A stretch of 64,000 bases of DNA from an uncultured Candidatus Peregrinibacteria bacterium (GCA_903854335.1 CAINVY010000010.1:69060-133059); one strand, 5' to 3'; positions 2,341 through 26,430 are shown, numbered from the stretch's first letter. Numbers and translations are program-made. Notes: a model not told the origin generated them from the sequence alone.

Positions 2341-3867
2341 CTATGCGAATCCCGGGAAGAAATCCGTGGTGATGCGATGGCGGGGAACATCCATGTTTCG
2401 AAGTGTGCGCTGCGTGCCGATGACCATGTCATGCGTTCCGGAGAGATAGTAATGGCACTCCTCGCATTCCTGAACCCATCGCCGGATCATGTTCTCGTCA
2501 ACGCGTCCCGTCTCCCCTTTCCAGTCCGAAGGAATCGCGGAGGGATCCGTGAGCGTGTAGATGACGTCCGTCCCGATGCGTTTTCTCGCCGTATCAAACA
2601 CATCACGATACGCAATGTCTTCCGTACGCTTGTTTGAATAGAAGAGCGTGACCGGGCGCCGATCGTTTCGATCGAGCATATTCTTGATCATGCTGCGAAA
2701 TGGCGTGACGCCTATCCCGCCCGCAATGAAGACGAGCCTCTCTCCCGTGTTCTTTGGAAGAGTAAACTCTCCTGCGAGCTGCGATGCGATAATGCTGTCA
2801 CCGGGTTCGAGGGCGAGGAGTCGCTGCTTGAACGTGCTCGATTTCTCATAGAAACGCACGCCCATCGCGATGCCATCTTCCGTCGGCGATGAAGAGATCG
2901 TGAAGCTGCGACGGTTGCCGCGCGCATCAGGACGATCGTGCCCGAGCGTCCACTCCAGGTATTGCCCGGGCAGAAACGCGAGCGTCTCGGACGATTGAAA
3001 CCAGAAATCGTAGATCCCCGAGGCGACGCGTAATTTTTTCCGGAGAATCAGCAGGAGCTTCTGCTTCGGACTCACGATGTAGACATACACATTCCCAAGA
3101 AGTAGCGCAAGTTCCGGCGTGAAATAGAAAGTACCGATGTGTATCCACGGCGCGAAGAGGATGCCGACAATTACGCCGTAAAGAACACGAAGCGTTCTCT
3201 TGGAAGGCATCGTGAGCGGCTCCGTCAACATGACGGTGGCGAAGAAGAGGACAGGCGTTACCGTGAGCACATTCCATACGATCCCGCCAAGCGCGGCTAC
3301 GTCCGTGATACGTGTGCCGATGATCGCGACGACTGCCGTCACGATGAACGCCCAGAAGAGATCGAAACGCTGGGTTTTGCGAACGATGAGGAGTCCTCCG
3401 GCAAGAACGAACGGCATCATGGGAAACGTCCCGATCCACCAGCTCGCGGACTGATTCAGCGTGAGGGCCGTGAGGGCGACGCCGAACGCCGCGGGGTTGA
3501 AAATGTGTTTGCGACCGATGGCGAAGATGTACTTCGACGCCATCGCCCAGATCGATGCCCAGCATGCAATCTCCAAATACGTGCCGTCGCCCATCGACTG
3601 TGGCGGCGTGATGAGGAAGACAAGAATGAGCGCTGTAATGATGAACGATTCGACATTCGTCGGCGCTTTGAAGGAAAGAGAGAAGAAGACATTCGCCGCC
3701 CAACAGAGCATCGTGATGCATGCGAGAGAGAAGAGGAGCATCAGCGGCTGGACCGGCAACACGCCCATAGCACTGAGAATCAGCGCGACGAAGAAGAGGG
3801 CGATCAGTTCGTAGAGAACGACCCGATACATCGTGTAACGATTGAGGAGGGCATCGATGAAATTCAT
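2341..3867 (-). CDS. membrane oxidoreductase: NqrB/RnfD-like polytopic domain fused to ferredoxin-NADP-reductase-like FAD/NAD(P)-binding domain
   Basis: N-terminal multi-TM region with GRKHIFNPAAFGV and MLTEPLTMP (NqrB/RnfD-like signatures). C-terminal RRSFTISSSP (RxYS-type FAD site) and FIAGGIGVTPF (NAD(P) site). The start forms an ATGA overlap with the apbE stop. Confidence 0.8.
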   Translation of the reverse strand: MNFIDALLNRYTMYRVVLYELIALFFVALILSAMGVLPVQPLMLLFSLACITMLCWAANVFFSLSFKAPTNVESFIITALILVFLITPPQSMGDGTYLEIACWASIWAMASKYIFAIGRKHIFNPAAFGVALTALTLNQSASWWIGTFPMMPFVLAGGLLIVRKTQRFDLFWAFIVTAVVAIIGTRITDVAALGGIVWNVLTVTPVLFFATVMLTEPLTMPSKRTLRVLYGVIVGILFAPWIHIGTFYFTPELALLLGNVYVYIVSPKQKLLLILRKKLRVASGIYDFWFQSSETLAFLPGQYLEWTLGHDRPDARGNRRSFTISSSPTEDGIAMGVRFYEKSSTFKQRLLALEPGDSIIASQLAGEFTLPKNTGERLVFIAGGIGVTPFRSMIKNMLDRNDRRPVTLFYSNKRTEDIAYRDVFDTARKRIGTDVIYTLTDPSAIPSDWKGETGRVDENMIRRWVQECEECHYYLSGTHDMVIGTQRTLRNMDVPRHRITTDFFPGFA

Positions 3868-4610
3868 GGCAAATGAACGTAAGAAGGAAAGTGTGTCGTC
3901 ATAGTAGCGATACCATGTCGGTCGATCATATACCCCTCGAACCCGTCGAGCCCCTCGATGAATTCGATCCCCGCTCGTTCCATCGCGAACGCGGCGGTGG
4001 CGAAACGATCCGCATCAAAGACGCTTGGCCCGATCACCGTGAGACTCACGATCTCCGTAATCGGCTTGTCAGGATCGAACGGATTGTAGATGTGCTGCCC
4101 GCGAATGTACGTTCCCGATGTGGCGATGCCTTGGTCTTTCAACGTGATAATCTTGACGATCTTCCCCAGAGAAAACGGATCGCGAATGCCCACCCTCCAC
4201 GGCCCATCGGGGCTTTCGCCTCGCACCTGAATATCGCCTCCCGCCTCCACGTAGAAATCGCGGAAGCCCGCATCCGAGAGGAGGCGCGCGGCGTCCTGGA
4301 TAGCCAGACCTTTCACGAGGCCGGAAGGATTGCGTCGACCGTCCGTCGTGTGAATGTCGAAGTATCCATTTGTGATAAGGCGCGTCTCTTCGCAGAGCTT
4401 GAGAATGGCTTTCAGATCGGCACTGCACTCTTCCTCAGTAATCAGTCCGCTATTGAGACGGGAGACTTCGCTCGTTTCCTTGAAAGGACTGAACTGTTCG
4501 TCGATGCGTCGGAAATATGAAAATACGTTCTCCAGGTCGCCTTCCCGAGCAGATGCATCCGCGATCTCGACCGTAATCGGCATGCCCATGATGGGACGCG
4601 TCTGCTTCAT
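3864..4610 (-). CDS. apbE: FAD:protein FMN transferase (ApbE family)
   Basis: MGMPITVEI..., FSPFKETSEVSRLN, NPSGLVKGLAIQ, VEAGGDIQVRG, GIATSGTYIRGQHIYNPFD and DADRFATAAF all match ApbE conserved blocks. No signal peptide or lipobox is visible. Confidence 0.9.
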   Translation of the reverse strand: MKQTRPIMGMPITVEIADASAREGDLENVFSYFRRIDEQFSPFKETSEVSRLNSGLITEEECSADLKAILKLCEETRLITNGYFDIHTTDGRRNPSGLVKGLAIQDAARLLSDAGFRDFYVEAGGDIQVRGESPDGPWRVGIRDPFSLGKIVKIITLKDQGIATSGTYIRGQHIYNPFDPDKPITEIVSLTVIGPSVFDADRFATAAFAMERAGIEFIEGLDGFEGYMIDRHGIATMTTHFPSYVHLP

Positions 4611-4615
4611 AGCTA

Positions 4616-5092
4616 CTACTGCGCCTGCGATAGGGCAGAATCCAGGGACACATTGAACGCCCCCGTCGTTTCGGTCGCACCGGAAACCACATCCACAGGA
4701 GCATGCTGCGAAGCGATGGCCTCACTGCGAAGCGACGACATCGCTCTGGTATTGATACGATTCGATGTCGCGCGATCGCTCGGATACTGGAGGAATTGAA
4801 CATCGCTCAGCTGTCCGCCGCTCACCGTGACCTGCACCTGCACGGATCCGTAGTACGCATCCGCACTCGCTCCCGTGTACACGCCATCGCGATACAATCC
4901 CTGTTTCTTCTTCGCTTTCGGTTTGAAAACGGTCGATGTCGGGACAGGAGGCTCGGACGATGTCACGGGAGAAGTAACATCGGGTTGAGGCGCAGCAACA
5001 ACAGGAACGACATCGGGCGCGAGCAACCGTCGGTAGCCCACGTAGACGATGAATATCAAAATAAGGAAAAACGAGGAGAGGTGTTTCTTCAT
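4616..5092 (-). CDS. membrane-anchored FMN-binding (FMN_bind) domain protein, predicted ApbE substrate
   Basis: N-terminal TM FFLILIFIVYVGY, a Pro/Thr-rich linker, then YRDGVYTGASADAYYGSVQVQVTVSGG...DVVSGATETT. This contains the Dxx[ST]GA[TS] flavinylation motif. Confidence 0.85.
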   Translation of the reverse strand: MKKHLSSFFLILIFIVYVGYRRLLAPDVVPVVAAPQPDVTSPVTSSEPPVPTSTVFKPKAKKKQGLYRDGVYTGASADAYYGSVQVQVTVSGGQLSDVQFLQYPSDRATSNRINTRAMSSLRSEAIASQHAPVDVVSGATETTGAFNVSLDSALSQAQ

Positions 5093-9892: not shown

Positions 9893-11971
9893 ATGTCTCT
9901 TCTCCATCCCACATCCGTCGCCGTCATCGGTGCATCGGGAGATGAACGAAAAGTGGGACATTTGATTTTAAGAAATCTTCTGACGCAGGGATTTTGCGGA
10001 AACGTATTTCCCGTCAATCCCAAGGGAGGGGAAATCCTCGGACACGCGGCATACAAGTCCATCGGGGATATCACGGAACACGTGGATCTCGCGATCATCG
10101 TCACGCCGGCCGAGACGGTCGCTCCCCTCGCTGAGGAATGCGGAAAGAAAGGGGTTCCATCACTTGTCGTCATCAGTGCGGGTTTCCGCGAGAGCGGGGA
10201 AGAAGGAAAGGTACGGGAGGAAAAACTTCAGGAGATCGTGAAGCACTACGACATGGATCTCGTCGGTCCCAACTGCCTCGGACTCATGCGACCGTCGATC
10301 GGAATGAACGCCTCGTTCGGCAGTCATCTGCCGCCCGCCGGATCCGTCGCGCTCCTCAGCCAGTCCGGCGCACTCGGACAGGCATTCATGGATCGAGCGG
10401 GGAGCATCGGACTCAAAATCTCGCTGTTCGTCAGCATGGGAAATAAAGCGACAATGGACGAGAGCGACTTCCTGGAGCTTTGCGAACGCGATGAAGAAAC
10501 GAAAGTGATCGGCCTCTACCTGGAAAACATCCGCGATGGCCGTCACTTCCTCGCGCTCGCACGACGCATCAACCGCACCAAGCCCATCATCCTGCTCAAA
10601 GCGGGAACGACGGAACGGGGACGTCGCGCCGTCTCCTCACACACGGGCGCACTCGCGGGCTCCGATGCGGCCGTCCAGGCGATCTGTGGCCAGAGCGGCA
10701 TCAGACGAGCCCTTACCGCGGAAGAATTCCTCGACATGCTGCGCACGCTCTCGCTGCAACCCGCCCTCCTCTCGTCCTCCATCGGCATCATCACGAACGC
10801 GGGCGGCCCCGGCGTCCTCGCCGCCGACGCGGCGGAGAGAGAAGGCATCTCCCTCGTCTCACTCTCTCCCGAAAACGAAGAGCATCTCAAGAGCATCCTT
10901 CCGCCCACGGCGAGCATCCGCAATCCCATCGATGTCATCGGAGACGCCCTCGCCGATCGTTTCGAACACGCGATCCAAGCAGTTGCCAAAGATGAGAATA
11001 TGGATGGCGCGCTCGTGATCGTAACGCCGCAAGTGATGACACCGACGAAGGAAATCGCCGAAACCATCATCGCCGCAAAGAAGAATCACCCTCTCTTCCC
11101 CATCGTCACGTCATTCATGGGAAAGGAAGGCGTGCGCGATGCGATCACGCTCCTCCATCAGCACGGCATCCCAAATTTCTCCTGCCCGGAAATCGCAGTG
11201 CACATGCTCTCGATGCTTCGTTCGCCCATCGATGCTCCCACGGAAGATGAAGATGTCCCGTTCAATGCGAAACGAGCCGAGAAAGCGCGCCAAATCCTCA
11301 CCGAGGCCGGTCCCGGCCTCCTGAGCGAAGATCGCACCGCAGCACTTTTCTCCCTCTACGCTCTCCCGCTGCCCAAGGGACGCGTGGCCAAGACCAAGGA
11401 AGAAGCGGTGGTGATCGCTCGGGACATCGGCTTCCCGGTGGCGGCAAAGATCAGCTCCACAGATATCGTGCACAAGACGGATGTCGGCGGGGTGCGCGTC
11501 GATCTCCAGACGGAAGACGACGTCCAGAAAGCGTTCGATGCCATCTGGACCAGTGTTGCGTCGAAAGCACCGAACGCTAAAAGAGATGGCATCCTGATCC
11601 AACAATTCCTTCCTCCCGGGAATGAATTCATCGTAGGAACACTGAAAGACCCGGGAGTGGGGCAGCTGGTGATGGCGGGACTGGGTGGCATCTACACCGA
11701 GCTCTTCGCCGATGCCTCCTTCCGACTCGCGCCCGTGTCGCTCTCCGTCGCCTACCCGATGCTCGGCAGTCTCAGAAGCTTCCAGATTCTCACGGGCATG
11801 CGCGGCAAAGCACCGCTCGATACCGCCGCACTCGCCGATCTCATCTGTACGACGTCGATTCTCGCCGTGGAGTGTCCCGCAATCGCCGAGATCGATATGA
11901 ATCCCGTGCTCGTGACGGAAAAGGGACTGACGATCCTCGATGCGAAGATCATCGTGAATGGGAAGAGATAA
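9893..11971 (+). CDS. ADP-forming acetyl-CoA synthetase / acyl-CoA synthetase (NDP-forming), fused alpha-beta
   Basis: CoA-binding N-terminus SVAVIGASGDERKVGH, a succinyl-CoA-ligase-like middle (LVGPNCLGL, SQSGALG, ITNAGGPGVLAAD) and a C-terminal ATP-grasp domain. Confidence 0.9.
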   Translation: MSLLHPTSVAVIGASGDERKVGHLILRNLLTQGFCGNVFPVNPKGGEILGHAAYKSIGDITEHVDLAIIVTPAETVAPLAEECGKKGVPSLVVISAGFRESGEEGKVREEKLQEIVKHYDMDLVGPNCLGLMRPSIGMNASFGSHLPPAGSVALLSQSGALGQAFMDRAGSIGLKISLFVSMGNKATMDESDFLELCERDEETKVIGLYLENIRDGRHFLALARRINRTKPIILLKAGTTERGRRAVSSHTGALAGSDAAVQAICGQSGIRRALTAEEFLDMLRTLSLQPALLSSSIGIITNAGGPGVLAADAAEREGISLVSLSPENEEHLKSILPPTASIRNPIDVIGDALADRFEHAIQAVAKDENMDGALVIVTPQVMTPTKEIAETIIAAKKNHPLFPIVTSFMGKEGVRDAITLLHQHGIPNFSCPEIAVHMLSMLRSPIDAPTEDEDVPFNAKRAEKARQILTEAGPGLLSEDRTAALFSLYALPLPKGRVAKTKEEAVVIARDIGFPVAAKISSTDIVHKTDVGGVRVDLQTEDDVQKAFDAIWTSVASKAPNAKRDGILIQQFLPPGNEFIVGTLKDPGVGQLVMAGLGGIYTELFADASFRLAPVSLSVAYPMLGSLRSFQILTGMRGKAPLDTAALADLICTTSILAVECPAIAEIDMNPVLVTEKGLTILDAKIIVNGKR

Positions 11972-11996: not shown

Positions 11997-12416
11997 TCTC
12001 TTTCTTTGTCAGGCGCGACAAAGAAAGAGAGAAAGAAAACGCCTGCCTGCCGGCAGGCAGGCTGGCGCGCCGAAGCTCATCATCTGGCTCTGCGCCTTTG
12101 CTCCGGCTGCTCCAAGGTTTCGCAGCCGTCGCGTCGGCGGAATGCCACGGCGTTTCGAACGCCGTGGCACAGAGCCTCGCCTCCACTTTCAAAAACTCGT
12201 TCTCGTGTGATAAGCAACGGCGCGCGGACTGAAAGGTTGTATATATTGCTTCACAGAAAAAACACACACCCACAAAGCCGGAGCGCGCAACACGGGGTGG
12301 AATAGTTTTTCAGAGGAATCATTTTACGAAGCATTGTTGCGCGAGCCTGCCTGCCGGCAGGCAGGCACTTTCTTTTCGCCTTTCTTTCTTGCCCTGAGTA
12401 AAGAAAGGCGATATGT
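11997..12416. repeat. composite palindromic repeat locus (mosaic of hairpin modules shared with three other intergenic loci)
   Basis: Perfect 14-bp-stem hairpin at 11997-12030. Identical 22-bp perfect palindromes gcctgcctgccggcaggcaggc at 12041-12062 and 12345-12366. Module 12063-12135 is an inverted homolog of 30519-30592. Hairpin gccacggcgtt-tcg-aacgccgtggc at 12144-12169. Hairpin cgcctttcttt...aaagaaaggcg at 12377-12410. Confidence 0.85.
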
Positions 12417-12461: not shown

Positions 12462-12980
12462 ATGCAAGACACTGCCCTGAGTCTTCCGCAAACGAAGGAT
12501 TGGTCGCGCGTATTCCTTTTCGCTTGTTTCGCTGCAATCACGCTCGCTCCTCTCACGATGATCCATGCGCAGTGGCTCACCGGCCCTCTCGTGAACGCCA
12601 TGCTCCTGCTCACCTGCGTGCTGGTCGGCCCCCTTCAAGCGGTCATCCTCGGACTCTTCCCCAGCCCCACGGCGCTCGTGAGCGGATTGCTCCCCCTGCC
12701 GCTCGCGCCGATGCTGCCGTTCATCATGATTTCCAACGCACTCTACGTCATCGTATTTTCCCGCTTGCAAAAGCGAAATATGATCGTGGGCATCGTGACG
12801 GGTTCGCTCGCGAAATATCTCTTCCTCCTGCTCTCCTCCCGCTTCCTCGCCACCACGCTCCTGCCGCCAAGCTCCCTGCACCTGGCATCCGGGATGATGG
12901 GAAGTATGCAGGGAATCACCGCGCTTGTGGGCGGGGCGATCGCTCTCGCCATCCTCTCTTTCACTCGTCTCCGTGCCTGA
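12462..12980 (+). CDS. polytopic membrane protein (ECF-transporter S-component-like; function uncertain)
   Basis: About 5 predicted TM helices. QWLTGPLVNAMLLLTCVLVGP resembles vitamin-transporter S components (recalled from memory, not verified). The stop overlaps the likely GTG start of the next gene. Confidence 0.5.
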   Translation: MQDTALSLPQTKDWSRVFLFACFAAITLAPLTMIHAQWLTGPLVNAMLLLTCVLVGPLQAVILGLFPSPTALVSGLLPLPLAPMLPFIMISNALYVIVFSRLQKRNMIVGIVTGSLAKYLFLLLSSRFLATTLLPPSSLHLASGMMGSMQGITALVGGAIALAILSFTRLRA

Positions 12981-13974
12981 CATCATTGTGCGCCTGAAAG
13001 AGGCGAACATCATCGGGCGGGGCGGGGCGGAATTCCCGGCTCATCAGAAGTGGGCGGCAGTGCGCGATGCGACGGCAAAGGCGAAGTACGTCATCTGCAA
13101 CGCCTCCGAACGCGAGCCGGCCGTCTTCAAGGATTTCCACATTCTAAGCCATGAACCCGAGAAAGTATTCGCGGGACTCACCCTCGCGATGACCACCGTC
13201 GGCGCAACGGAGGGCATCTTCAATCTCAATGCGGAATACGCGCAGAAGCTAAAAGAAACCTTCTCGACGCTCATCGCCAAAGCGAAGGGAGAAGGATGTG
13301 CCATCCGCATTTTCGAAGAATTTCCCTCGTACATCGGCGGCGAAGAGACGGCGCTGCTCAACGCCATCGAAGGACGACGCTGCGAGCCGCGACTGCGCCC
13401 GCCCTTTCCCACCGAGCAAGGCCTCTACGGCTGTCCGACGCTCATCCACAACGTGGAGACGCTCTACGACATCGCGTGCGTATCCGATGGCACCTTCGAG
13501 GGCAAACGGTTCTACTCGATCTCAGGCGCCGTCGAACACACGGGCGTGTTTCACCTGCCTTCCTCGCTCACCGCGCTCCAGGTTCTCACGGAGACCGGTA
13601 ACCTGCCCGAGGGCGATTTCTTTGCGCAACTCGGAGGAGGCGGGAGCGGTGCAGTCTTCAATCGCACGCAATTGGAAACAGAGAGAGTGCGTGGAGCCGG
13701 CGCAATCATCGTGCATCGATGCGACGAAGACGCGAGAGGACTCGTGCTCTCGTGGCTGGAATTCTTCCAGAGAGAGAGCTGCGGCAAGTGCACGCCATGC
13801 CGCGAAGGCACCTACCAGCTCGTCCGTCTGATGGAGGATAGTGACGCAATTCCCTGGGAGCGCATGACGCCGATCTTCGACGTGCTCGAGAAGACATCCT
13901 TCTGCGCGCTGGGTCGGTCGGTTCCCCTACCCGTGCAGAGCTACTATCGAAACGTATTTCAACGACAATCATGA
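12973..13974 (+). CDS. NuoF/HydB-like FMN- and NAD(H)-binding flavoprotein with [4Fe-4S] site
   Basis: GRGGAEFPAHQKW, YIGGEETALLNAIEG, PPFPTEQGLYGCPTLIHNVET, ESCGKCTPCREGT...FCALG. GTG 12973 chosen; it overlaps the upstream stop at 12978-12980. ATGA overlap with hydA. Confidence 0.85.
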   Translation: MPDIIVRLKEANIIGRGGAEFPAHQKWAAVRDATAKAKYVICNASEREPAVFKDFHILSHEPEKVFAGLTLAMTTVGATEGIFNLNAEYAQKLKETFSTLIAKAKGEGCAIRIFEEFPSYIGGEETALLNAIEGRRCEPRLRPPFPTEQGLYGCPTLIHNVETLYDIACVSDGTFEGKRFYSISGAVEHTGVFHLPSSLTALQVLTETGNLPEGDFFAQLGGGGSGAVFNRTQLETERVRGAGAIIVHRCDEDARGLVLSWLEFFQRESCGKCTPCREGTYQLVRLMEDSDAIPWERMTPIFDVLEKTSFCALGRSVPLPVQSYYRNVFQRQS

Positions 13975-15740
13975 AAGCGATCCCGCTCGACACCGGCAGA
14001 GAGGTGACTGTCTTCCTCAATGGAAAGTCCTGCAACGCACAGGAAGGAGAGAGCATTCTGACCGTCGCGCTGCGGGAGGGATTCGATATTCCGCACTACT
14101 GCACACACGAAGACCTGCCCATCGACGCGAACTGCCGGACCTGCCTGGTAGAAATCGAAGGGAAGAATACCGTCGTCACCTCCTGCAGTCTGCGCGCTAC
14201 CGAAGGACTGCGCGTCCTCCTGGACACACCACAGGTCATTAAACTTCGCACGCAGAATATGGAGCTCCTCTTCGGCGACTACCAGAGTAATTCTCCGCGC
14301 ATCCGCCACGGGTACTACAGCCGCACGCTCGAGGAGATGAAGCGATTCGGCATCACGGGAGAGCAGTACAAGCGCGACGATCCCCGTCGCCCGATTCACA
14401 AACTTGGCTCGGCCGCCGAGTTCGATCCCGCGCTCTGCATCGCGTGCAACAAATGCGTAGAGGCCTGCCAGATGATCGGCATTTGCCACCTGCGCCTCGA
14501 GGGCCGGGGCTCCAAGACGCGCGTCGACTTCAACCCCGATCCCGCAAACGACTGCATCTACTGCGGACAGTGCACCGCGCACTGCCCCGTGGAAGCGATC
14601 CGCGAGCAAAGCCATCTCGAACAGGTCGTCGAAGCACTGAGAGATGAGGACAAAATCGTCATCGTGCAATCCGCTCCCTCGATCCGCACGAGCATCGGGG
14701 AAGGTTTCGGCGTCGAGCCGGGCACGGATCTCACCGGAGAACTCGTCACGGCCTGCCGCATGCTCGGCTTCGATAGAGTGTTCGACGTGAACATGGGCGC
14801 GGACATCACCACGATGGTGGAAGCGGAGGAACTCATCAAGAGGCTGCGGCACAAGTGGGACTTCCAGGAAGGAAAACGCAAGGATCCTCCCGTGAAGGGG
14901 CCGATGTTCACCTCGTGCTGCCCCGGCTGGGTGAAGTTCGTGGAATTCTACAAGAGCGATTTCATCCCGAATCTCACCGTCGCGCGCTCACCACAGATCC
15001 ATTCGGGAGGCGCGTACAAAACATGGTGGGCGGAGAAGGAAGGGATCGATCCGAAGAAGATCGTCGTCGTTTCCATCATGCCGTGCACGTCGAAGAAGTA
15101 CGAAACCACCTTCGAACACCTCAAGATTGACGGGATGAAGCCCGTGGATTTCGTCCTCACGACCCGCGAACTCATCTCGCTGCTCAAAACACGGAAGATC
15201 GATCTGCCCCGCCTCGAGAAAGGCGAGGTAGACCGCGAGGGCATGTACTCGGGAGCGGGCGCCATCTACGGCGCATCCGGCGGCGTGATGGAGTCCGCGC
15301 TGCGCACTGCGTACCGCATGCTTACGGGAGAGGATTCTCCTTCCATCGAGTTCACGTCGGTACGAGGATTCGACGGCTTCAAGCGCGCGAAGATTCAAAT
15401 CGGAACGAGAACGGTCTCCGTCGCCGTCGTCGCGATGCCGAAGAATTTCTGGCCGGTCTTCCGCGAGATCGCCAAGGATCAAAATGCCTACGACTACGTG
15501 GAATGTATGGCCTGTCCGGGAGGCTGCATCGGAGGAGGAGGGCAACCGATCCCCAACACCTTCGCTCTTGTGAAGAAGCGCATCCAGGGACTCTACGGGA
15601 TCGACAAGAACATGACCTTCCGTCGCGCCCACGACAATCCCGTTGTACGCGACTACTTCACCTACCTCGACACACTTCCCGCCGAGAGGCGTGATGCGCT
15701 GCTGCGCCGTGGCTTCCAGAAGAAAGCCAAAGGGGAATAG
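13971..15740 (+). CDS. hydA: [FeFe]-hydrogenase catalytic subunit with N-terminal ferredoxin-like domains
   Basis: H-cluster motifs FTSCCPGW, MPCTSKKYE and ECMACPGGCIGGGGQP. N-terminal 2Fe-2S (CTHEDLPIDANCRTCLVEI). Two CxxCxxCxxxCP motifs (CIACNKCVEAC, CIYCGQCTAHCP). Confidence 0.95.
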   Translation: MKAIPLDTGREVTVFLNGKSCNAQEGESILTVALREGFDIPHYCTHEDLPIDANCRTCLVEIEGKNTVVTSCSLRATEGLRVLLDTPQVIKLRTQNMELLFGDYQSNSPRIRHGYYSRTLEEMKRFGITGEQYKRDDPRRPIHKLGSAAEFDPALCIACNKCVEACQMIGICHLRLEGRGSKTRVDFNPDPANDCIYCGQCTAHCPVEAIREQSHLEQVVEALRDEDKIVIVQSAPSIRTSIGEGFGVEPGTDLTGELVTACRMLGFDRVFDVNMGADITTMVEAEELIKRLRHKWDFQEGKRKDPPVKGPMFTSCCPGWVKFVEFYKSDFIPNLTVARSPQIHSGGAYKTWWAEKEGIDPKKIVVVSIMPCTSKKYETTFEHLKIDGMKPVDFVLTTRELISLLKTRKIDLPRLEKGEVDREGMYSGAGAIYGASGGVMESALRTAYRMLTGEDSPSIEFTSVRGFDGFKRAKIQIGTRTVSVAVVAMPKNFWPVFREIAKDQNAYDYVECMACPGGCIGGGGQPIPNTFALVKKRIQGLYGIDKNMTFRRAHDNPVVRDYFTYLDTLPAERRDALLRRGFQKKAKGE

Positions 15741-20733: not shown

Positions 20734-21762
20734 TCACTTTGCCATCGTCCCCATCACGTTCGCGAGGATTTGCGCCATCTCTGCTCGCGTGAGGGAGGCG
20801 GCTCCGTGGAAAGATCCTTGCGGCATGTTGATCCATCCTGCGAGGATGGCCATGCGCACAGAGTTCGCGTGGGAGACCGAGGCGGGAATGGCATTCCAAA
20901 CTGCGGTGTACTCCACCTGAGACTTCGACTTCAAGATCTGCTGCAATCGGTCTGCGTACGCATTAGCGAGAGCCTGGAGGAACTGCCCCTTCGTCACGAC
21001 CGACCCGTCCGAAGGAAGAGCATCGTCGATGGAGGAGAGATCAATACCCAGTGCAGTGAATGCCGCCTTTGCATCTGCAGTCGAGACTGTCCCGGCCGGA
21101 TCGAAACCACCATCGGCTCCGAGCGTCATCCACCCCTTGCTCACAGCTTCCGAGGCAGCCTGCGCATACCAGCTACCAGCGGAAACGCCCGGGAACGGTT
21201 GCGATGCGGAATGGAAGGGAAGCGTGGGAACGGAAGAAGCCCCCGACTGCGCAAGGCGTTGCTGCCTACGCAGGAGCGCACGTTGCTCTGCTGGTGAAAG
21301 CGAAGAGGGAGCCCCTGTCGGCTGGAGAGCCCCGGGAGCACTGGTCGGAGCGAGGTTCTGTTGCTGCCCCTTTACCACCGGAGTTCCCCCGATGTCCGTT
21401 CCATTTCTGTTCGTCCCGCCAGTCGTACCTCTGCTGCCGCCAGTACTGGGCGCAGAAGGGGTCGAAGATGAGGAAGTCGAGGGCCTTGCGCTTAGCGGTA
21501 TCCAGTCCGTCGAGACCTTGTACGAGAGAGAACACGAGCCTCCGCCATTGCTGCAATTGAAGGAGATCCACCCAACCTTGTCCCCCCATGCGTAACCGGA
21601 GAAGTTCCCCGAGGAATCAATCGTCACGGCGACGCTCAGGCGCGAGGACGACAAGCTCACACCCGAGCAGGAAGCCGGGATCACGGAGGCCTTACGCCTC
21701 GCGTCCCTCACATCCGAGGACGACGTCTCTTCTACTTCTCTTCCCTCACCAGACAATGGCAA
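20734..21762 (-). pseudogene. 5'-truncated surface-protein gene (SLH-like C-terminal region)
   Basis: The ORF opens at a TTG, directly at the start of the terminase-like gene, and has no signal peptide. It carries extracytoplasmic features: a GYAWGDKVGWISFN motif, a Ser/Thr/Gly-rich linker, and SLH-like WYAQAASEAVSKGWM and SLTRAEMAQILANVMG. Confidence 0.55.
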
Positions 21763-23369
21763 CGCCTAGGTTCAGTTCTTTCGTGCGCACAATGTGCGAG
21801 CGGATGCTCCATGATCGTCCTTTTCGCAAACAGGTCGTTCGCAAGAGCCACTACTGGTTCTTCCACTTCTACTTCCATCACTACGTCAAACACAAGACTG
21901 CCGCCTTCCAACGGCAGATGTTCCAGATGACGGAGAACGAACTTCTTAGACTCATAGCCATCACGGCGTTCCGTGGGTCAGGCAAGTCGACGATCATGAA
22001 CATGTCGTTCGTTCTCTGGGCGATCCTGGGTATCCGCAAAAAGAAGTTCGTCCTGATCGTCGGGCAGACCCAAGCCCAAGCGCGGCAGCACCTTCGAAAC
22101 ATCAAGGAGGAATTGGAACATAACAAGATTCTTCATCGAGATTTGGGGCCCTTCCGCGAAGTGGAAGACGAGTGGAGAAACAGTTCACTCGTGATACGAA
22201 ACTTCGGTGCCAAGATCATGGCCGTCAGTATCGACCAAGCGGTGCGGGGACTTCGTCATGGACAGTACCGACCGGACTTGATCATTTGTGATGACATCGA
22301 AGACCTCGATTCCGTCCGCTCCCTTGAGGGGCGGGACAAAACGTACCGCTGGGTGAAGGGCGAACTCCTCCCCGCTGGAGACACGGACACCACAGCCGTC
22401 TTCATTGGAAATCTGCTCCACGAGGATTGCCTCTTGAAGCGATTGCAGCAGGAGATTGAAAGTGGAGCGATGGAAGGCATGTATCGGGAATATCCACTCG
22501 TGAGTCCAGACGGAACGTGCTTGTGGTCGGGCAAGTATCCGACTCCGGAAGCGATTGATGCCGAACGCAAGAGAATCGGCAGTGCTTCCGCATGGCACCG
22601 GGAGTATTTGCTCACGATCCTCCCCGACCACGAGCGCCTCATCCATCCCAGCTGGATCCGGTACTACGACTGTCTACCGACTGATACCGAGGATGAACCG
22701 CTTCGCCTCGCTGCCACGGGAATCGACCTCGCGATCTCTCAGAAGGACAGCGCCGACAAGACGGCAATGGTCTCGATGAAGCTCTACGGGTTTGGGGGCG
22801 ACATGCGGCTCTACATCCTCGCCAATCCCGTCAACGAGCAGCTGACCTACCTTCAGACACTCGAGAGGGCGAAGGACGTGTCTCGCGCCGTCGGCGGAGG
22901 CGAGCGGACAAAGCTCTACATCGAGGAGGTCGGCTACCAGTCGGCATTGATTGAGCAATTGAAATTCGACGGCTTTCATGTCGAAGGCGTACCCCCGAAA
23001 GGCCAGGACAAGCGTGCGCGACTTGCCCTCGTCACGCACCTCATCCAGTCCGGCAAGGTGCTCTTCCCTCGTGCAGGCTGCGAGGCGCTCATCACGCAGC
23101 TCACGGGCTTCGGAAGTGAGCGCTATGACGACCTCGCCGATGCCTTTGCAGTCCTGCTCCTGCCGTGCCTCGAGTGGCAGGGCGGATCGCATGCATGGGT
23201 CTGGGAGCTCAATGACAAGCTCACGAAGGAGGAGCAGCTCAAGGAAGAGCGCAAGCGCAGCGGCTTCTTCTATCCCGATCACAGCGACGACAGAGACGGT
23301 GGTTCCTGGTGGGGACAGAGTGCGCTCGGCCCCCTTCACGGCACCAACATTCTCAATGAGCGGTTCTAA
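21756..23369 (+). CDS. terminase large subunit-like ATPase-nuclease, paralog 1
   Basis: Walker A AFRGSGKST. Walker B-like DLIICDDIED. C-terminal RNase-H-like acidic motifs ATGIDLAIS, YIEEVGYQ and YDDLADAF. ATG 21756 chosen by alignment with paralog 2. Confidence 0.7.
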   Translation: MATPRFSSFVRTMCERMLHDRPFRKQVVRKSHYWFFHFYFHHYVKHKTAAFQRQMFQMTENELLRLIAITAFRGSGKSTIMNMSFVLWAILGIRKKKFVLIVGQTQAQARQHLRNIKEELEHNKILHRDLGPFREVEDEWRNSSLVIRNFGAKIMAVSIDQAVRGLRHGQYRPDLIICDDIEDLDSVRSLEGRDKTYRWVKGELLPAGDTDTTAVFIGNLLHEDCLLKRLQQEIESGAMEGMYREYPLVSPDGTCLWSGKYPTPEAIDAERKRIGSASAWHREYLLTILPDHERLIHPSWIRYYDCLPTDTEDEPLRLAATGIDLAISQKDSADKTAMVSMKLYGFGGDMRLYILANPVNEQLTYLQTLERAKDVSRAVGGGERTKLYIEEVGYQSALIEQLKFDGFHVEGVPPKGQDKRARLALVTHLIQSGKVLFPRAGCEALITQLTGFGSERYDDLADAFAVLLLPCLEWQGGSHAWVWELNDKLTKEEQLKEERKRSGFFYPDHSDDRDGGSWWGQSALGPLHGTNILNERF

Positions 23370-23398
23370 TTTTTACTTCTTTCTTTCCCCTTTTTTGT

Positions 23399-24892
23399 AT
23401 GACCACCGATCACCTCACCCCAGACATCAAGAAGCGCATCCTGACCGATCAAATCTTCCGGCGTGCGCTCACGCGGGAGAACCATTACTGTTTTTTCCAC
23501 GTTTACTTCGGACATTACGTGACGTCACCCACGGCTGCATTCCAAAAAGAAATCTTCGGATTCACCGAAGATGAATCCCAGAAGCTCACGGCGATCACAG
23601 CCTTCCGAGGCTCTGCGAAGTCCACCATCATCTCGCTCTCATTCCCTCTCTGGGCAATCCTCGGCAAACCCGGCGTGAAGTTTGTGTTGATCCTTGGACA
23701 GACGCAGTCGCAAGCTCGCCAGCACCTGAAGAACCTGAAGGATGAGATCGAACGAAACGCCCTCCTCCGCAAAGACCTCGGACCGTTTGAGGAGCGCGAG
23801 GATGAGTGGAACTCCTCGTCCATTGTGCTGCCTCTGCTCGGCGCACGTATCACGGCAGCATCGACTGAAATGAGTGTGCGAGGCATTCGACATGGACCGT
23901 ACCGCCCCCAGCTCATCATCTGCGACGACATCGAAGACCTGCAGTCGGTGAAAACGAGAGAAGGGAGAGACAAGACCTACCAGTGGCTCATGGGCGAAGT
24001 GATCCCAGCGGGAGGGCAGAAGACGCGGACGTTTCTCATCGGAAACCTCCTGCACGAAGATTGCTTGCTTAAGAAATTTGAGCGGCACATCCAAGACGGC
24101 TCCATGAGTGGAGTTTACCGAGAGTATCCGCTACTCGATGCTCACGGGAAGGCGCTGTGGCCCGGGAAGTACCCGACCGAGGCATCCATCCTCGAAGAGA
24201 AATCACGCATCGGGAGTGAGGCGGCATGGCATAGGGAATTCTTGCTGCGCATTCTCGCAGACACCGAGTGCGTCATTCATCCCGGATGGATTCAGTACTA
24301 CGAGCAATTCCCGGCTGAACAGAATGGTTGCCATTTCCACTGTACGGGGACGGGCATCGACCTTGCCATCTCCCTGAATGACAGCGCGGACTTCACCGCG
24401 ATGGTGTCGGCGAAGCTCTACTTCATCGATGGGAAAATCCGCATCTTCATCCTGCCCAATCCCATCAACGAGCGCCTCACGGCGCTCGATACCCTCGAGC
24501 GTGCCAAGCAGGTGGCCGACATGACGGGCGGCGGCGACAAGTCCATTCTCTACATCGAGGACGTCGGCTATCAGTCCTCCTTGGTGGAGCATCTGAAGGA
24601 GAACGGCAATGAAGCCGAGGCAGTGAAGGTGAAGGGGCAGGATAAGAGGGGTAGGCTCGCGCTCACCTCGCATGCCGTCCAATCCGGCCAAGTGCTCTTT
24701 CCGAGGGAAGGGGCAGAAAACTTGATCGCCCAGCTCGTGCATTTCGGCGTTGAGAAGCATGACGACTTGGCTGATGCCTTCTCACTGCTTATTCTCAAGG
24801 CGCTTGAGGAGCGACAAACGAGCGTCGGATTCTGCATGATCGGATTCGATGGCTCCGTGCACGGATGGGACAGTGTGCGTGGCAAATACTAG
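23399..24892 (+). CDS. terminase large subunit-like ATPase-nuclease, paralog 2
   Basis: Collinear with paralog 1; roughly half the residues are identical by eye. AFRGSAKST, QLIICDDIED, GTGIDLAIS, YIEDVGYQ, HDDLADAF. Confidence 0.7.
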   Translation: MTTDHLTPDIKKRILTDQIFRRALTRENHYCFFHVYFGHYVTSPTAAFQKEIFGFTEDESQKLTAITAFRGSAKSTIISLSFPLWAILGKPGVKFVLILGQTQSQARQHLKNLKDEIERNALLRKDLGPFEEREDEWNSSSIVLPLLGARITAASTEMSVRGIRHGPYRPQLIICDDIEDLQSVKTREGRDKTYQWLMGEVIPAGGQKTRTFLIGNLLHEDCLLKKFERHIQDGSMSGVYREYPLLDAHGKALWPGKYPTEASILEEKSRIGSEAAWHREFLLRILADTECVIHPGWIQYYEQFPAEQNGCHFHCTGTGIDLAISLNDSADFTAMVSAKLYFIDGKIRIFILPNPINERLTALDTLERAKQVADMTGGGDKSILYIEDVGYQSSLVEHLKENGNEAEAVKVKGQDKRGRLALTSHAVQSGQVLFPREGAENLIAQLVHFGVEKHDDLADAFSLLILKALEERQTSVGFCMIGFDGSVHGWDSVRGKY

Positions 24893-24936
24893 ATTGGAAG
24901 GAGTTTTAAGGGCAATGAAAGGAGGATTCAAACATC

Positions 24937-24966
24937 AAAGCCGCTTCCTGACGGAAAGCGGCTTTT
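24937..24966 (+). terminator. intrinsic terminator after the terminase-like pair
   Basis: aaagccgc (24937-24944) pairs with gcggcttt (24958-24965), with a 13-nt loop. The stem runs into a tttt tract. Confidence 0.6.
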
Positions 24967-25062
24967 GAGCGATATTTCGATGCTCAAAGCGGGCTTTTGC
25001 GCTGGATACCAAGGGGATATTGCGGCATTGCTGTGAGTACCTATTTCCTTCCCACATTTCCT

Positions 25063-26430
25063 ATGGAAATCGCCTCCCTCAACAAGAGACGTGCTCAAAA
25101 AACACCAACGATCGAGACGGTTCACATCGATCTCACGCCCCCCTTCGACAAGTCGACAGGGGCAGTGCGCTACTGCTTGTATGCAAGGAAATCGAGCGAG
25201 GATGACGAGCGACAGGCGCTCAGTATCGATTCCCAAGTGAAGGCAATGTTGGAACTCGCCAAAAAGGAAGGGCTCGAGATTGCGGAGGTACGAAGAGAAA
25301 GCCACTCAGCGAAAGCAACGAGCGGGCGTCCGGTGTTCAACCAACTCGTCATTGATATCCGGAGTGGAATGTTCAACGGATTGCTGACGTGGGCTGCAGA
25401 CAGAATTTCTCGAAACGCCGGAGACCTTGGAAGCGTGATCGATCTCATGGATCAAGGTCACTTAACTGAGATCCGTTGCCACAGTCAGCGGTTTACCAAT
25501 AACCCCAATGAGAAATTTCTACTCATGATTCTTTGCAGCCAGGCGAAGCTCGAGAACGATAATCGAGGGATCAATACGAAGCGGGGCATGAAGACGAGGG
25601 CCGAGATGGGACATCGCCCCTGTATCCCTGCCTTAGGTTATGCTCTGGAGAAGCGACCGGAGGACAAGAAAAACAGAGTCATCCCTGATCCAATCCGAGG
25701 AGCATTCGTGAGACAGGCCTTTGAGAAGGTGGCCTATCAGCATACATCGGGGCGGCAACTCCATCGATGGATGCAGGAGGTGGGATTCACAACGAAGCTA
25801 GGGAGGGTCATTACACTGAGCATGATTTACAGGATGCTGAGAAACTCTTTCTATACGGGGAAGTTCGAGTACCCGGTCGGGAGCGGGAATTGGTATCAGG
25901 GCACCTACGAACCGCTCGTCCCTCAGCATCTCTTTGAAGAGGTCGGAAAGGTACTCGATATGGCACCGAAGAAGAAATGGGGCACGAAGGAATTCGCCTT
26001 CACAAAGATGATGATCTGCGGACAATGCGGATCCGGGATCACCGCCGAGGAGAAGCACAAGCGGATGAAAGACGGAAGCATACGGAAGTACGTGTACTAC
26101 CGCTGCAGTCACGCGAAGGATCTCACCTGCAAAGAAGGATCGATACGGGAAGACGCATTACTGGAGCGACTGCTAGAAATCATCGACGAGGTGGACCTGG
26201 ATAAGCTGGGGATGAAACAGCGCCTCCAAGAGGAGGTGGCACGCTACGAGAAATTCACGACAGGAGTCTTGGGGCAGACAGTCGGAGCGAAGATGCCAAA
26301 GGTCGATATCAAGACCTACGCGAAGTACATCCTGCAACAGGGAAAGATGGAGGAAAAACGCGAGCTGCTCTCCTGCCTAAAAAGCAAACTGGTGCTGAGG
26401 GATGGAATCCTGGAACTTACAAAGTCCTGA
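25063..26430 (+). CDS. large serine recombinase (integrase)
   Basis: Resolvase catalytic domain YARKSSEDDERQALSIDSQ and LLTWAADRISRN. A recombinase domain. Zinc ribbon CGQCGSGITAE...YYRCSH. Coiled-coil C-terminus. ATG 25063; the track start at 24997 is TTG. Confidence 0.85.
   Translation: MEIASLNKRRAQKTPTIETVHIDLTPPFDKSTGAVRYCLYARKSSEDDERQALSIDSQVKAMLELAKKEGLEIAEVRRESHSAKATSGRPVFNQLVIDIRSGMFNGLLTWAADRISRNAGDLGSVIDLMDQGHLTEIRCHSQRFTNNPNEKFLLMILCSQAKLENDNRGINTKRGMKTRAEMGHRPCIPALGYALEKRPEDKKNRVIPDPIRGAFVRQAFEKVAYQHTSGRQLHRWMQEVGFTTKLGRVITLSMIYRMLRNSFYTGKFEYPVGSGNWYQGTYEPLVPQHLFEEVGKVLDMAPKKKWGTKEFAFTKMMICGQCGSGITAEEKHKRMKDGSIRKYVYYRCSHAKDLTCKEGSIREDALLERLLEIIDEVDLDKLGMKQRLQEEVARYEKFTTGVLGQTVGAKMPKVDIKTYAKYILQQGKMEEKRELLSCLKSKLVLRDGILELTKS

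Follow-up and report, generated by a model that had tools for sequence, protein, structure and literature searches.

We analysed a 64,000-nucleotide stretch of the genome of an uncultured Candidatus Peregrinibacteria bacterium (GCA_903854335.1, CAINVY010000010.1:69060-133059), referred to here as the window, and concentrated on positions 12462 to 15740, where three open reading frames (ORFs) encode a small membrane protein of the HymD/Hyd6TM type, a minimal NuoF-like flavoprotein and HydA, the catalytic subunit of an [FeFe] hydrogenase (Table 1). The source genome comprises 1.175 Mb in 13 contigs, with 96.59% completeness and 0.07% contamination. The closest homologues carry the labels Candidatus Peribacteraceae, Peregrinibacteria or Patescibacteria, and the genes of the window are typical of bacteria of the Candidate Phyla Radiation (CPR). 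Four DNA sequencing runs, all from one lake-water study, are listed with this genome, and none of RNA.

Three overlapping genes form a hydrogenase cassette

An initial interpretation made from the DNA alone (the sequence-only reading) had described the three ORFs as chained by overlaps, and both the ORF listing and the raw sequence bear this out. The GTG at 12973 precedes the hymD stop codon by five bases and is in frame with the flavoprotein ORF, which is in turn linked to hydA by an ATGA at 13971-13974; in several relatives one-base overlaps occur among all three genes. The start at 12973 is favoured over an upstream TTG at 12925 because orthologue starts coincide with it, most of the 25 lying within one residue (ATG in 21 of them). 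ORF clustering of 21 loci carrying these genes returned HymD, the flavoprotein and HydA as the recurring members, with an acetyl-CoA synthetase in 5 loci. The three genes make up one operon, which is the usual hydrogenase cassette among CPR (Patescibacteria) bacteria. Conserved neighbours were also considered as an alternative maturation system, a candidate rejected when the same clustering gave no further recurring gene.

Table 1. Genes and predicted sites of the hydrogenase locus, in window coordinates
Feature	Position	Strand	Basis
hymD/hyd6TM-like gene, 172 amino acids	12462-12980	+	ORF; stop TGA 12978-12980
Minimal NuoF-like (HydB-like) flavoprotein gene, 333 amino acids	12973-13974	+	GTG start overlaps hymD stop
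Putative FMN/NADH-site motifs GRGGAEFPAHQKW and CNASEREPAVFKD	13015-13134	+	Motif table, 25 orthologues
Putative N3-type 4Fe-4S four-Cys site, ESCGKCTPCREG ... SFCALG	13774-13914	+	PF10589; Cys kept in 25/25 orthologues
hydA, group A [FeFe] hydrogenase, 589 amino acids	13971-15740	+	ORF, PF02906, TIGR02512
N-terminal 2Fe-2S site, C44/C55/C58/C72	14100-14186	+	PF13510; four Cys invariant in 25/25 full-length orthologues
Remnant His-ligated 4Fe-4S (FS4C) domain, four ligands replaced	14262-14390	+	Alignment to 8a6t_A
Two ferredoxin-type 4Fe-4S sites, CxxCxxCxxxC at residues 156-166 and 195-205	14436-14585	+	Pfam Fer4
H-cluster domain	14652-15539	+	PF02906; TSCCP 14910-14924, MPC 15078-15086, ECMACPGGC 15501-15527
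ADP-forming acetyl-CoA synthetase, directly upstream context	9893-11971	+	Pfam ATP-grasp_5, Succ_CoA_lig, CoA_binding

HydA has the features of a group A [FeFe] hydrogenase

HydA passes the NCBIfam model TIGR02512 ([FeFe] hydrogenase, group A) with 417.9 bits against a cut-off of 405.95, and Pfam recognised Fe_hyd_lg_C (PF02906, 5e-75 over residues 228-523), Fer2_4 (PF13510), Fer4 families and Fe_hyd_SSU. The best-scoring NCBIfam model, NF040763 (NADH-dependent [FeFe] hydrogenase, group A6), matches end to end without being passed (560.6 bits, cut-off 765), and the N-terminal half is NuoG/HoxU-like. The nearest solved chains are 8a6t_A (1.2e-117) and 7q4v_A, both HydA1 of bifurcating enzymes, followed by CpI. 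The motif tables contain what the sequence-only reading had listed, namely the three H-cluster motifs (TSCCP at residues 314-318, MPC at 370-372 and ECMACPGGC at 511-519), the N-terminal 2Fe-2S site and two 4Fe-4S motifs, whose eight Cys are retained in all 33 HydA sequences from related genomes. By these domains and motifs, HydA is a true group A [FeFe] hydrogenase.

The stretch between the 2Fe-2S domain and the first ferredoxin motif contains no Cys, as had been pointed out, and gave no PF10588 match in Pfam; HydA does not have the (Cys)3His-ligated cluster of the M3 (clostridial) architecture. Compared with 8a6t_A, the length of this domain is preserved and the H, C, C and C ligands align with Y104, S108, I111 and S117. 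The four positions read YSIS in three genomes of the window's genus and YACS in two of another genus; HCCC is kept in the 22 other full-length HydA sequences, and six short forms are without the region. The loss is lineage-specific because these 22 proteins keep their ligands, and it is a trait of the window's genus and one other rather than of the whole cassette.

The flavoprotein retains only the NuoF core

The flavoprotein matched Complex1_51K (PF01512, 9.7e-34, 116.9 bits) and NADH_4Fe-4S (PF10589, 1.3e-17, 63.9 bits) and nothing else in Pfam, that is, the flavin mononucleotide (FMN)-binding and N3 4Fe-4S domains by which the NuoF/51-kDa family is recognised; it does not pass the NuoF equivalog TIGR01959 (212.2 bits, cut-off 558.65). 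In alignments with solved structures it covers residues 154-516 of a 597-residue HydB-type chain, 154-518 of a 599-residue HydB and 52-416 of Thermus Nqo1, and it is without the N-terminal segment of NuoF and the extra iron-sulfur domains of HydB. In complex I structures, that N-terminal segment contacts NuoE. Whereas a group A3 HydB has about 600 residues, with an N-terminal thioredoxin-like 2Fe-2S domain and C-terminal 2x[4Fe-4S] domains, the protein encoded here has 333 residues and neither of these additions.

All 25 recovered orthologues have 325-340 residues, and a database search returned at least 120 clusters of about 317-390 residues with at least 48% identity; because so many clusters share a similar length, we regard the mini-flavoprotein as a populous family and not as a truncation. 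The FMN/NADH and 4Fe-4S motifs are kept, as Pfam and the orthologues confirm, and so is the deviant CNASEREPAVFKD block to which the sequence-only reading had drawn attention: CNASE replaces the usual CNADE, with NASE, a clade-wide signature, in 24 of the 25 orthologues and NGSE in one. GRGGA, GGEETAL and NVET are likewise conserved among the 25.

NuoE and the HydEFG maturases are missing from the genome and from most relatives

We then examined the whole genome for the partners that such an enzyme would normally have, using family searches that each gave positives in control genomes. NuoE (PF01257), HydG and HydE had no match in the 96.59%-complete genome, HydF searches reached only generic GTPases (at most 76 bits, cut-off 325), and neither a BATS domain nor HydF_tetramer was detected in it. 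The absence of NuoE, HydE, HydF and HydG previously noted for the 64 kb therefore extends to the whole genome, which lacks both the HydE, HydF and HydG set of a HydEFG-dependent system and the NuoE-like HydC of a group A3 HydABC. With no PF01257 match in the genome and a flavoprotein that corresponds to the NuoF core, the two-subunit NAD(P)H-linked hydrogenase proposed earlier is the simplest reading. Even among reduced genomes, such poverty in radical S-adenosylmethionine (SAM) proteins is unusual: a single Radical_SAM match (C3:55672-56079, 19.4 bits) was found, and it lies under the Pfam cut-off.

Two samples placed these absences in context, one of 401 genomes of the same class and another of 401 genomes at least 90% complete from across the phylum. 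HydA is present in 36 of the 401 genomes of the class; within the window's own family it occurs in 2 of 64, both of them congeners, and a third congener is without it. Among the 35 HydA-bearing relatives, the same six pass the HydG, HydE and HydF cut-offs and 29 have none of these proteins, including the 100%-complete genomes G017, G027 and G033 (one contig each) and G002 (two contigs). PF01257 passes in six of the 35, in ORFs of 82-137 residues that cover the second half of the model only, none of them beside HydA. The second sample contributed 16 HydA-bearing genomes of other classes, of which 15, 94-100% complete, are without HydG and HydF, the two maturases searched for there (HydE was not); the remaining genome has HydG (544 bits) and a HydF-like protein just below the cut-off (318.8 bits). 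Maturases are thus lacking in 45 of the 52 HydA-bearing CPR genomes sampled, several of them closed, and their absence is the rule in this sample.

The catalytic pocket of HydA is conserved in maturase-less genomes

The H-cluster Cys are retained in 33 of 33 HydA sequences from related genomes. The Cys pair of TSCCP and K375, E378, S340 and M513, a set that includes the CN-binding Lys and residues of the proton path, are invariant in all 25 orthologues, whose identity falls as low as 40%. Comparison of the three maturase-less congeners gave a ratio of non-synonymous to synonymous substitution (dN/dS) of 0.10-0.17 for HydA and 0.10-0.16 for the flavoprotein, values that are rough because dS, at 1.1-2.7, exceeds 1. 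In a quick maximum-likelihood tree, with support from the Shimodaira-Hasegawa-like approximate likelihood-ratio test (SH-aLRT) only, the HydA proteins of maturase-bearing genomes fall in at least three places among the maturase-less ones, and in one case a maturase-less and a maturase-bearing genome are sisters. The catalytic pocket is under clear constraint.

The membrane protein is a HymD/Hyd6TM homologue with a predicted S-component fold

Pfam and NCBIfam scans gave nothing above cut-off for the membrane protein itself. The sequence-only reading had likened it to vitamin-type S components of energy-coupling factor (ECF) transporters and suggested a search against that family, whose outcome was mixed: the protein scores 13.8 bits for PF12822, below the cut-off of 30.7, but many of its 106 homologues carry PF12822, and their labels include 'iron hydrogenase' and 'ECF transporter S component'. 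In the ESM Atlas, the nearest clusters bear the name '[Fe] hydrogenase HymD subunit' (score 0.97; structural template-modelling score, TM, 0.91). With an alignment of 42 sequences, AlphaFold2 produced a model with a mean predicted local distance difference test score (pLDDT) of 90.8 and six helices, one of them kinked, instead of the roughly five transmembrane segments counted before. Foldseek placed S components at the top ranks for this model (probability 0.94-1.00, TM 0.48-0.62, with weak E-values of 0.008-0.6), led by RibU and ThiT (TM 0.56-0.62, probability 1.00, E 0.008-0.1), and TM reached 0.67 against a chain of the PanT complex. The model thus predicts an ECF S-component fold for HymD, and the suspected resemblance holds at this level.

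Five polar residues inside the helices (Q37, N45, N92, K118 and Q150) do not vary among the 42 aligned sequences. EcfT (PF02361) has no match in the genome, in which EcfA was not searched separately. For the DNA preceding hymD in the window, Rfam returned nothing better than chance, and no riboswitch was found directly upstream of the HymD homologue in 12 loci titled Bacillota or relatives; a thiamine pyrophosphate (TPP) and a purine riboswitch do occur in two loci, about 4-5 kb away. A predicted complex of HydA and HymD scored 0.00, which speaks neither for nor against contact. As a small multi-helix membrane protein encoded in the same operon as a group A hydA, the protein belongs to the HymD/Hyd6TM family, an already known, uncharacterised companion of group A hydrogenases, and the linkage of this membrane protein to hydrogenases is therefore not a novelty of this locus.

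HymD accompanies HydA more closely than it does the flavoprotein

With the single protein as query, HymD was found in 29 of the 36 HydA-bearing genomes of the class, almost always adjacent to HydA, and the flavoprotein in 28 of the 36. Seven genomes have a short HydA of about 450 residues and no flavoprotein, and in five of these HymD lies directly upstream of HydA. The suggestion that the membrane protein supplies flavin is unlikely because of these five genomes, and we rejected it.

A HymD profile gave strong matches (at least 143 bits) in 31 of the 401 genomes of the class, 28 of which contain HydA; in the three that do not, no more than about 3 kb separates the match from the start of a contig. 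Weak matches only (39-94 bits) were obtained in ten HydA-free genomes. A distant HymD-like gene (61-94 bits) is present in the HydA-free congener G390 (C4:82346-82852) and in genera g15 and g29 of the window's family, and the distant genes of HydA-free genomes may represent a paralogous S-component-like family. In G351, G379 and G383 (family f11 of the class), the weak HymD-like matches include 3-5 TGA codons in frame, which would fit lineages of the class that read TGA as an amino acid.

We extended the comparison to 80 HymD neighbourhoods, one genome per species, 59 of them non-Bacillota and 21 titled Bacillota or relatives. HydA lies inside the fetched stretch in 47 of the 59 non-Bacillota loci, and no group A HydA was found near HymD in the other 21. 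In Clostridium lundense (L150:2184-6438), hydE, hydG, hydF and hymD follow each other on one strand with short gaps, the three maturase genes scoring 356.7, 693.3 and 589.7 bits, respectively, in NCBIfam. In Coprothermobacter platensis (L131:5923-8900), a HymD-family gene adjoins a sensory-type hydrogenase cluster made up of a histidine-kinase-like ATPase, a DRTGG protein and an Fe_hyd_lg_C protein whose C-terminal domain is of the FeS type.

Of the 16 HydA-bearing genomes outside the class, 6 have HymD. Within the class it occurs in 27 of 30 maturase-less and 2 of 6 maturase-bearing genomes, counts in which relatives are not independent observations. HymD thus often accompanies HydA but can be dispensed with, and its link is with the hydrogenase or with hydrogenase maturation, not with the flavoprotein.

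Genomic surroundings and other features of the window

The acetyl-CoA synthetase upstream of hymD is also found upstream in both congeners that carry the cassette, and a POR_N match (a domain of pyruvate/2-oxoacid:ferredoxin oxidoreductases) lies 3.9 kb outside the window. In the comparison with the cassette-free congener G390, made to locate the insertion site, no downstream genes in common with the window were found. A spacer of 490 bases separates hymD from the acetyl-CoA synthetase gene and contains two exact copies of the 22-base palindrome GCCTGCCTGCCGGCAGGCAGGC, at 12041-12062 and 12345-12366, for which the chance expectation is none; each copy is flanked by purine- or pyrimidine-rich runs, inverted in orientation, and the two score as terminator-like hairpins on opposite strands.

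Elsewhere in the window, adjacent genes at 2341-5092 on the - strand encode a 508-residue NAD_binding_1 protein, an ApbE flavin transferase and an FMN_bind protein, and together resemble a small flavoprotein module of membrane or extracytoplasmic type. A region at 21029-26430 with three large ORFs without Pfam matches, followed by a 477-residue large serine recombinase, may be a mobile element. At 35584-38043 on the + strand, an 819-residue SecD/SecF-type protein has a PPIC-type peptidyl-prolyl isomerase domain within its periplasmic part.

Discussion

The HymD name reportedly originates from a paper on the hymABCD iron-hydrogenase operon of Eubacterium acidaminophilum. A hymD gene is also named in Heliobacterium modesticaldum, in the accessible part of that report (PMC2887804). 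By ESM Atlas cluster names and homologue labels, the Bacillota HymD belongs to the same family as that of the window, although in the 21 loci compared here it usually does not stand beside a hydrogenase, as the window HymD does. The organisms with the Bacillota hym operon have NuoE-like and full-size NuoF-like subunits, and presumably maturases too. ECF S components such as RibU and ThiT share the six-helix fold predicted for HymD, and PF12822 is found on many HymD homologues; unlike these transporters, the window genome has no EcfT, and its own protein stays below the PF12822 cut-off. Among enzymes of solved structure, the bifurcating HydABC of group A3 (7q4v/8a5e, 8a6t and 7p5h) has the most similar HydA, and the core of its HydB is homologous to the flavoprotein, but the window system is without HydC and its genus has lost the His-ligated cluster.

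A close parallel comes from the archaea. In the accessible text and tables of Greening et al. (Cell 2024, PMC11216029), archaeal group A clusters contain Hyd6TM, also a protein of about 180 residues with 5-6 helices directly beside hydA, in hosts that are likewise genome-reduced and mostly without HydEFG, and the sequences of their Table S2 share QLLxGxxVN, LPSxxA..G, MxPFIWxGN and MGxxQLxTA with HymD when compared by eye only. Hyd6TM as described there is archaeal, lies mostly by a minimal M1-type HydA and carries no domain annotation, whereas the HymD studied here is bacterial, is encoded upstream of a flavoprotein gene and has a predicted ECF S-component fold. According to the same material, a full set of maturases occurs in 5 of 130 HydA-bearing DPANN genomes, and the authors put forward an alternative pathway (PMC11216029). 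The maturase-less hydrogenases of DPANN and Asgard archaea, Giardia and Entamoeba, as far as the consulted parts of the literature describe them, likewise combine intact H-cluster motifs with the absence of HydEFG. We did not find a published account of missing maturases, of the mini-flavoprotein or of HymD for CPR bacteria, in a search that missed most subscription journals; the Peribacteria genome paper, in its accessible part, mentions only 'one subunit of a Fe-hydrogenase'. The cassette is a HydC-less, maturase-less and HymD-linked variant of a known enzyme class, widespread in CPR and parallel to that of DPANN archaea.

From the gene content, motifs, absences and co-occurrence reported above, we infer a HydC-less, non-bifurcating, NAD(P)H-linked fermentative hydrogenase that obtains its [2Fe] subcluster by a non-canonical route, a reading that we consider probable while leaving considerable room for doubt. 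Electrons would follow a linear path from NAD(P)H through FMN, the N3-type cluster, the HydA 2Fe-2S cluster and two 4Fe-4S clusters to the H-cluster, a side-branch His-ligated cluster having been lost in the window's genus. Because the parts used for bifurcation in the solved HydABC are absent, the enzyme would not bifurcate. Fermentation reductant would be discarded as H2, beside an ATP-yielding acetyl-CoA synthetase, and direct electron input from ferredoxin, reduced by the 2-oxoacid:ferredoxin oxidoreductase of the genome, would also be possible. HydE, HydF and HydG are absent, and the [2Fe] part should therefore come from a pathway other than HydEFG or from outside the cell. HymD would be an ECF-S-type membrane protein that stands alone and is linked to HydA as such. 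Its most likely role, to which we give slightly less than an even chance, is to bind or pass a small molecule for assembling or keeping the active site; a function as a membrane dock is the next candidate and somewhat less plausible.

Several observations weigh against this reading. NADH-driven H2 formation is uphill under standard conditions (-320 mV versus -414 mV), and would therefore proceed only at low H2, so that uptake or ferredoxin-driven operation is possible; confurcation by a mechanism not recognisable from sequence is possible as well. As for HymD, 20 of the 21 loci from Bacillota or relatives, including Coprothermobacter, have no hydrogenase gene within 6 kb of the homologue, and the sole exception is a sensory-type hydrogenase gene. 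Three of the 30 maturase-less genomes in the class are without HymD, two of them with HydA at a contig edge, as are nine of the 15 maturase-less HydA genomes outside it; HymD is therefore not essential for a maturase-less HydA, and a strict inverse relation between HymD and the maturases was rejected on the latter count. HymD is also present in two of the seven maturase-bearing genomes, and the two are therefore not mutually exclusive. One of the 29 maturase-less relatives, G013, has a sub-threshold HydG/ThiH-like match (224 bits), and the limits given above for the dN/dS values, the HydA tree and the maturase searches in other classes belong to the same side of the balance.

Other explanations have to be set against this evidence. 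An ordinary trimeric, bifurcating HydABC of group A3, with HydC and HydEFG merely missing from the assembly, would agree with a genome split over 13 contigs and with the HydA1 proteins of bifurcating enzymes being the best solved relatives of HydA; the rules of HydDB, in the part of the source available, also assign to A3 any group A HydA that has NuoF as a neighbour, and a Peregrinibacteria enzyme is so filed. We nevertheless regard it as highly improbable. No PF01257, HydE, HydG or HydF-specific match occurs in the nearly complete genome, the same absences recur in 100%-complete relatives of one or two contigs, so that closed relatives contradict the idea of an assembly gap, and the few PF01257 matches in six relatives are short half-model ORFs away from HydA. 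The flavoprotein, moreover, is without the N- and C-terminal domains of HydB, at a similar length in 25 of 25 orthologues. A HydA that carries no [2Fe] subcluster and makes no H2, serving with the flavoprotein as an iron-sulfur/flavin wire (for example as a ferredoxin:NAD(P)+ oxidoreductase) or as a sensor, would explain why maturases and radical-SAM enzymes are absent; its NuoG/HoxU-like N-terminal half could conduct electrons alone, and an accessory cluster has already been lost in the window's genus. We think this unlikely, since residues relevant only to the diiron site and the proton relay are invariant in the orthologues, the H-cluster Cys persist in every sequence, and maturase-bearing and maturase-less HydA lie close on the tree. 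In addition, the consulted part of the archaeal study reports that enzymes of maturase-less genomes are active with a synthetic cofactor (PMC11216029).

The part played by HymD is itself disputable. It could be a passive membrane anchor of a soluble hydrogenase and nothing else, supplying neither cofactor nor substrate, as its tight translational coupling to the enzyme genes, the origin of its name as a subunit of an iron hydrogenase operon (by cluster and homologue names) and the lack of any hint of transport from EcfT or a riboswitch might suggest. We judge this rather doubtful, although it is a more serious contender than the wire or sensor: five invariant polar residues within helices are unusual for a mere anchor, the predicted fold would be that of ligand-binding S components, the hymD of Clostridium lundense comes after maturase genes and not hydA, and most homologues in the Bacillota loci stand apart from any hydrogenase. 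At the other extreme, HymD/Hyd6TM might work on its own as an importer or receptor of the S-component type, specific for a preformed precursor of the diiron H-cluster, or for a dedicated building block, that neighbour or host cells release, a proposal that we put forward as a long shot.

The cassette is a compact three-gene unit, and rule-based assignments of such CPR enzymes as 'A3, bifurcating' are probably wrong. How the CO/CN-ligated diiron site of HydA arises without HydE, HydF and HydG is a question already raised for archaea and some protists, to which this locus adds an intact, clearly constrained pocket in a genome without a radical-SAM match above the Pfam cut-off. HymD/Hyd6TM offers a concrete candidate for that question: it has the predicted fold of a ligand-binding transporter component, it tracks HydA and not the flavoprotein, and it stands in the maturase operon of one Clostridium. 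If the import of a precursor by HymD were true, the hydrogenases of CPR bacteria and DPANN archaea would be cofactor-auxotrophic, and the operon would encode both the uptake and the use of a scavenged organometallic cofactor.

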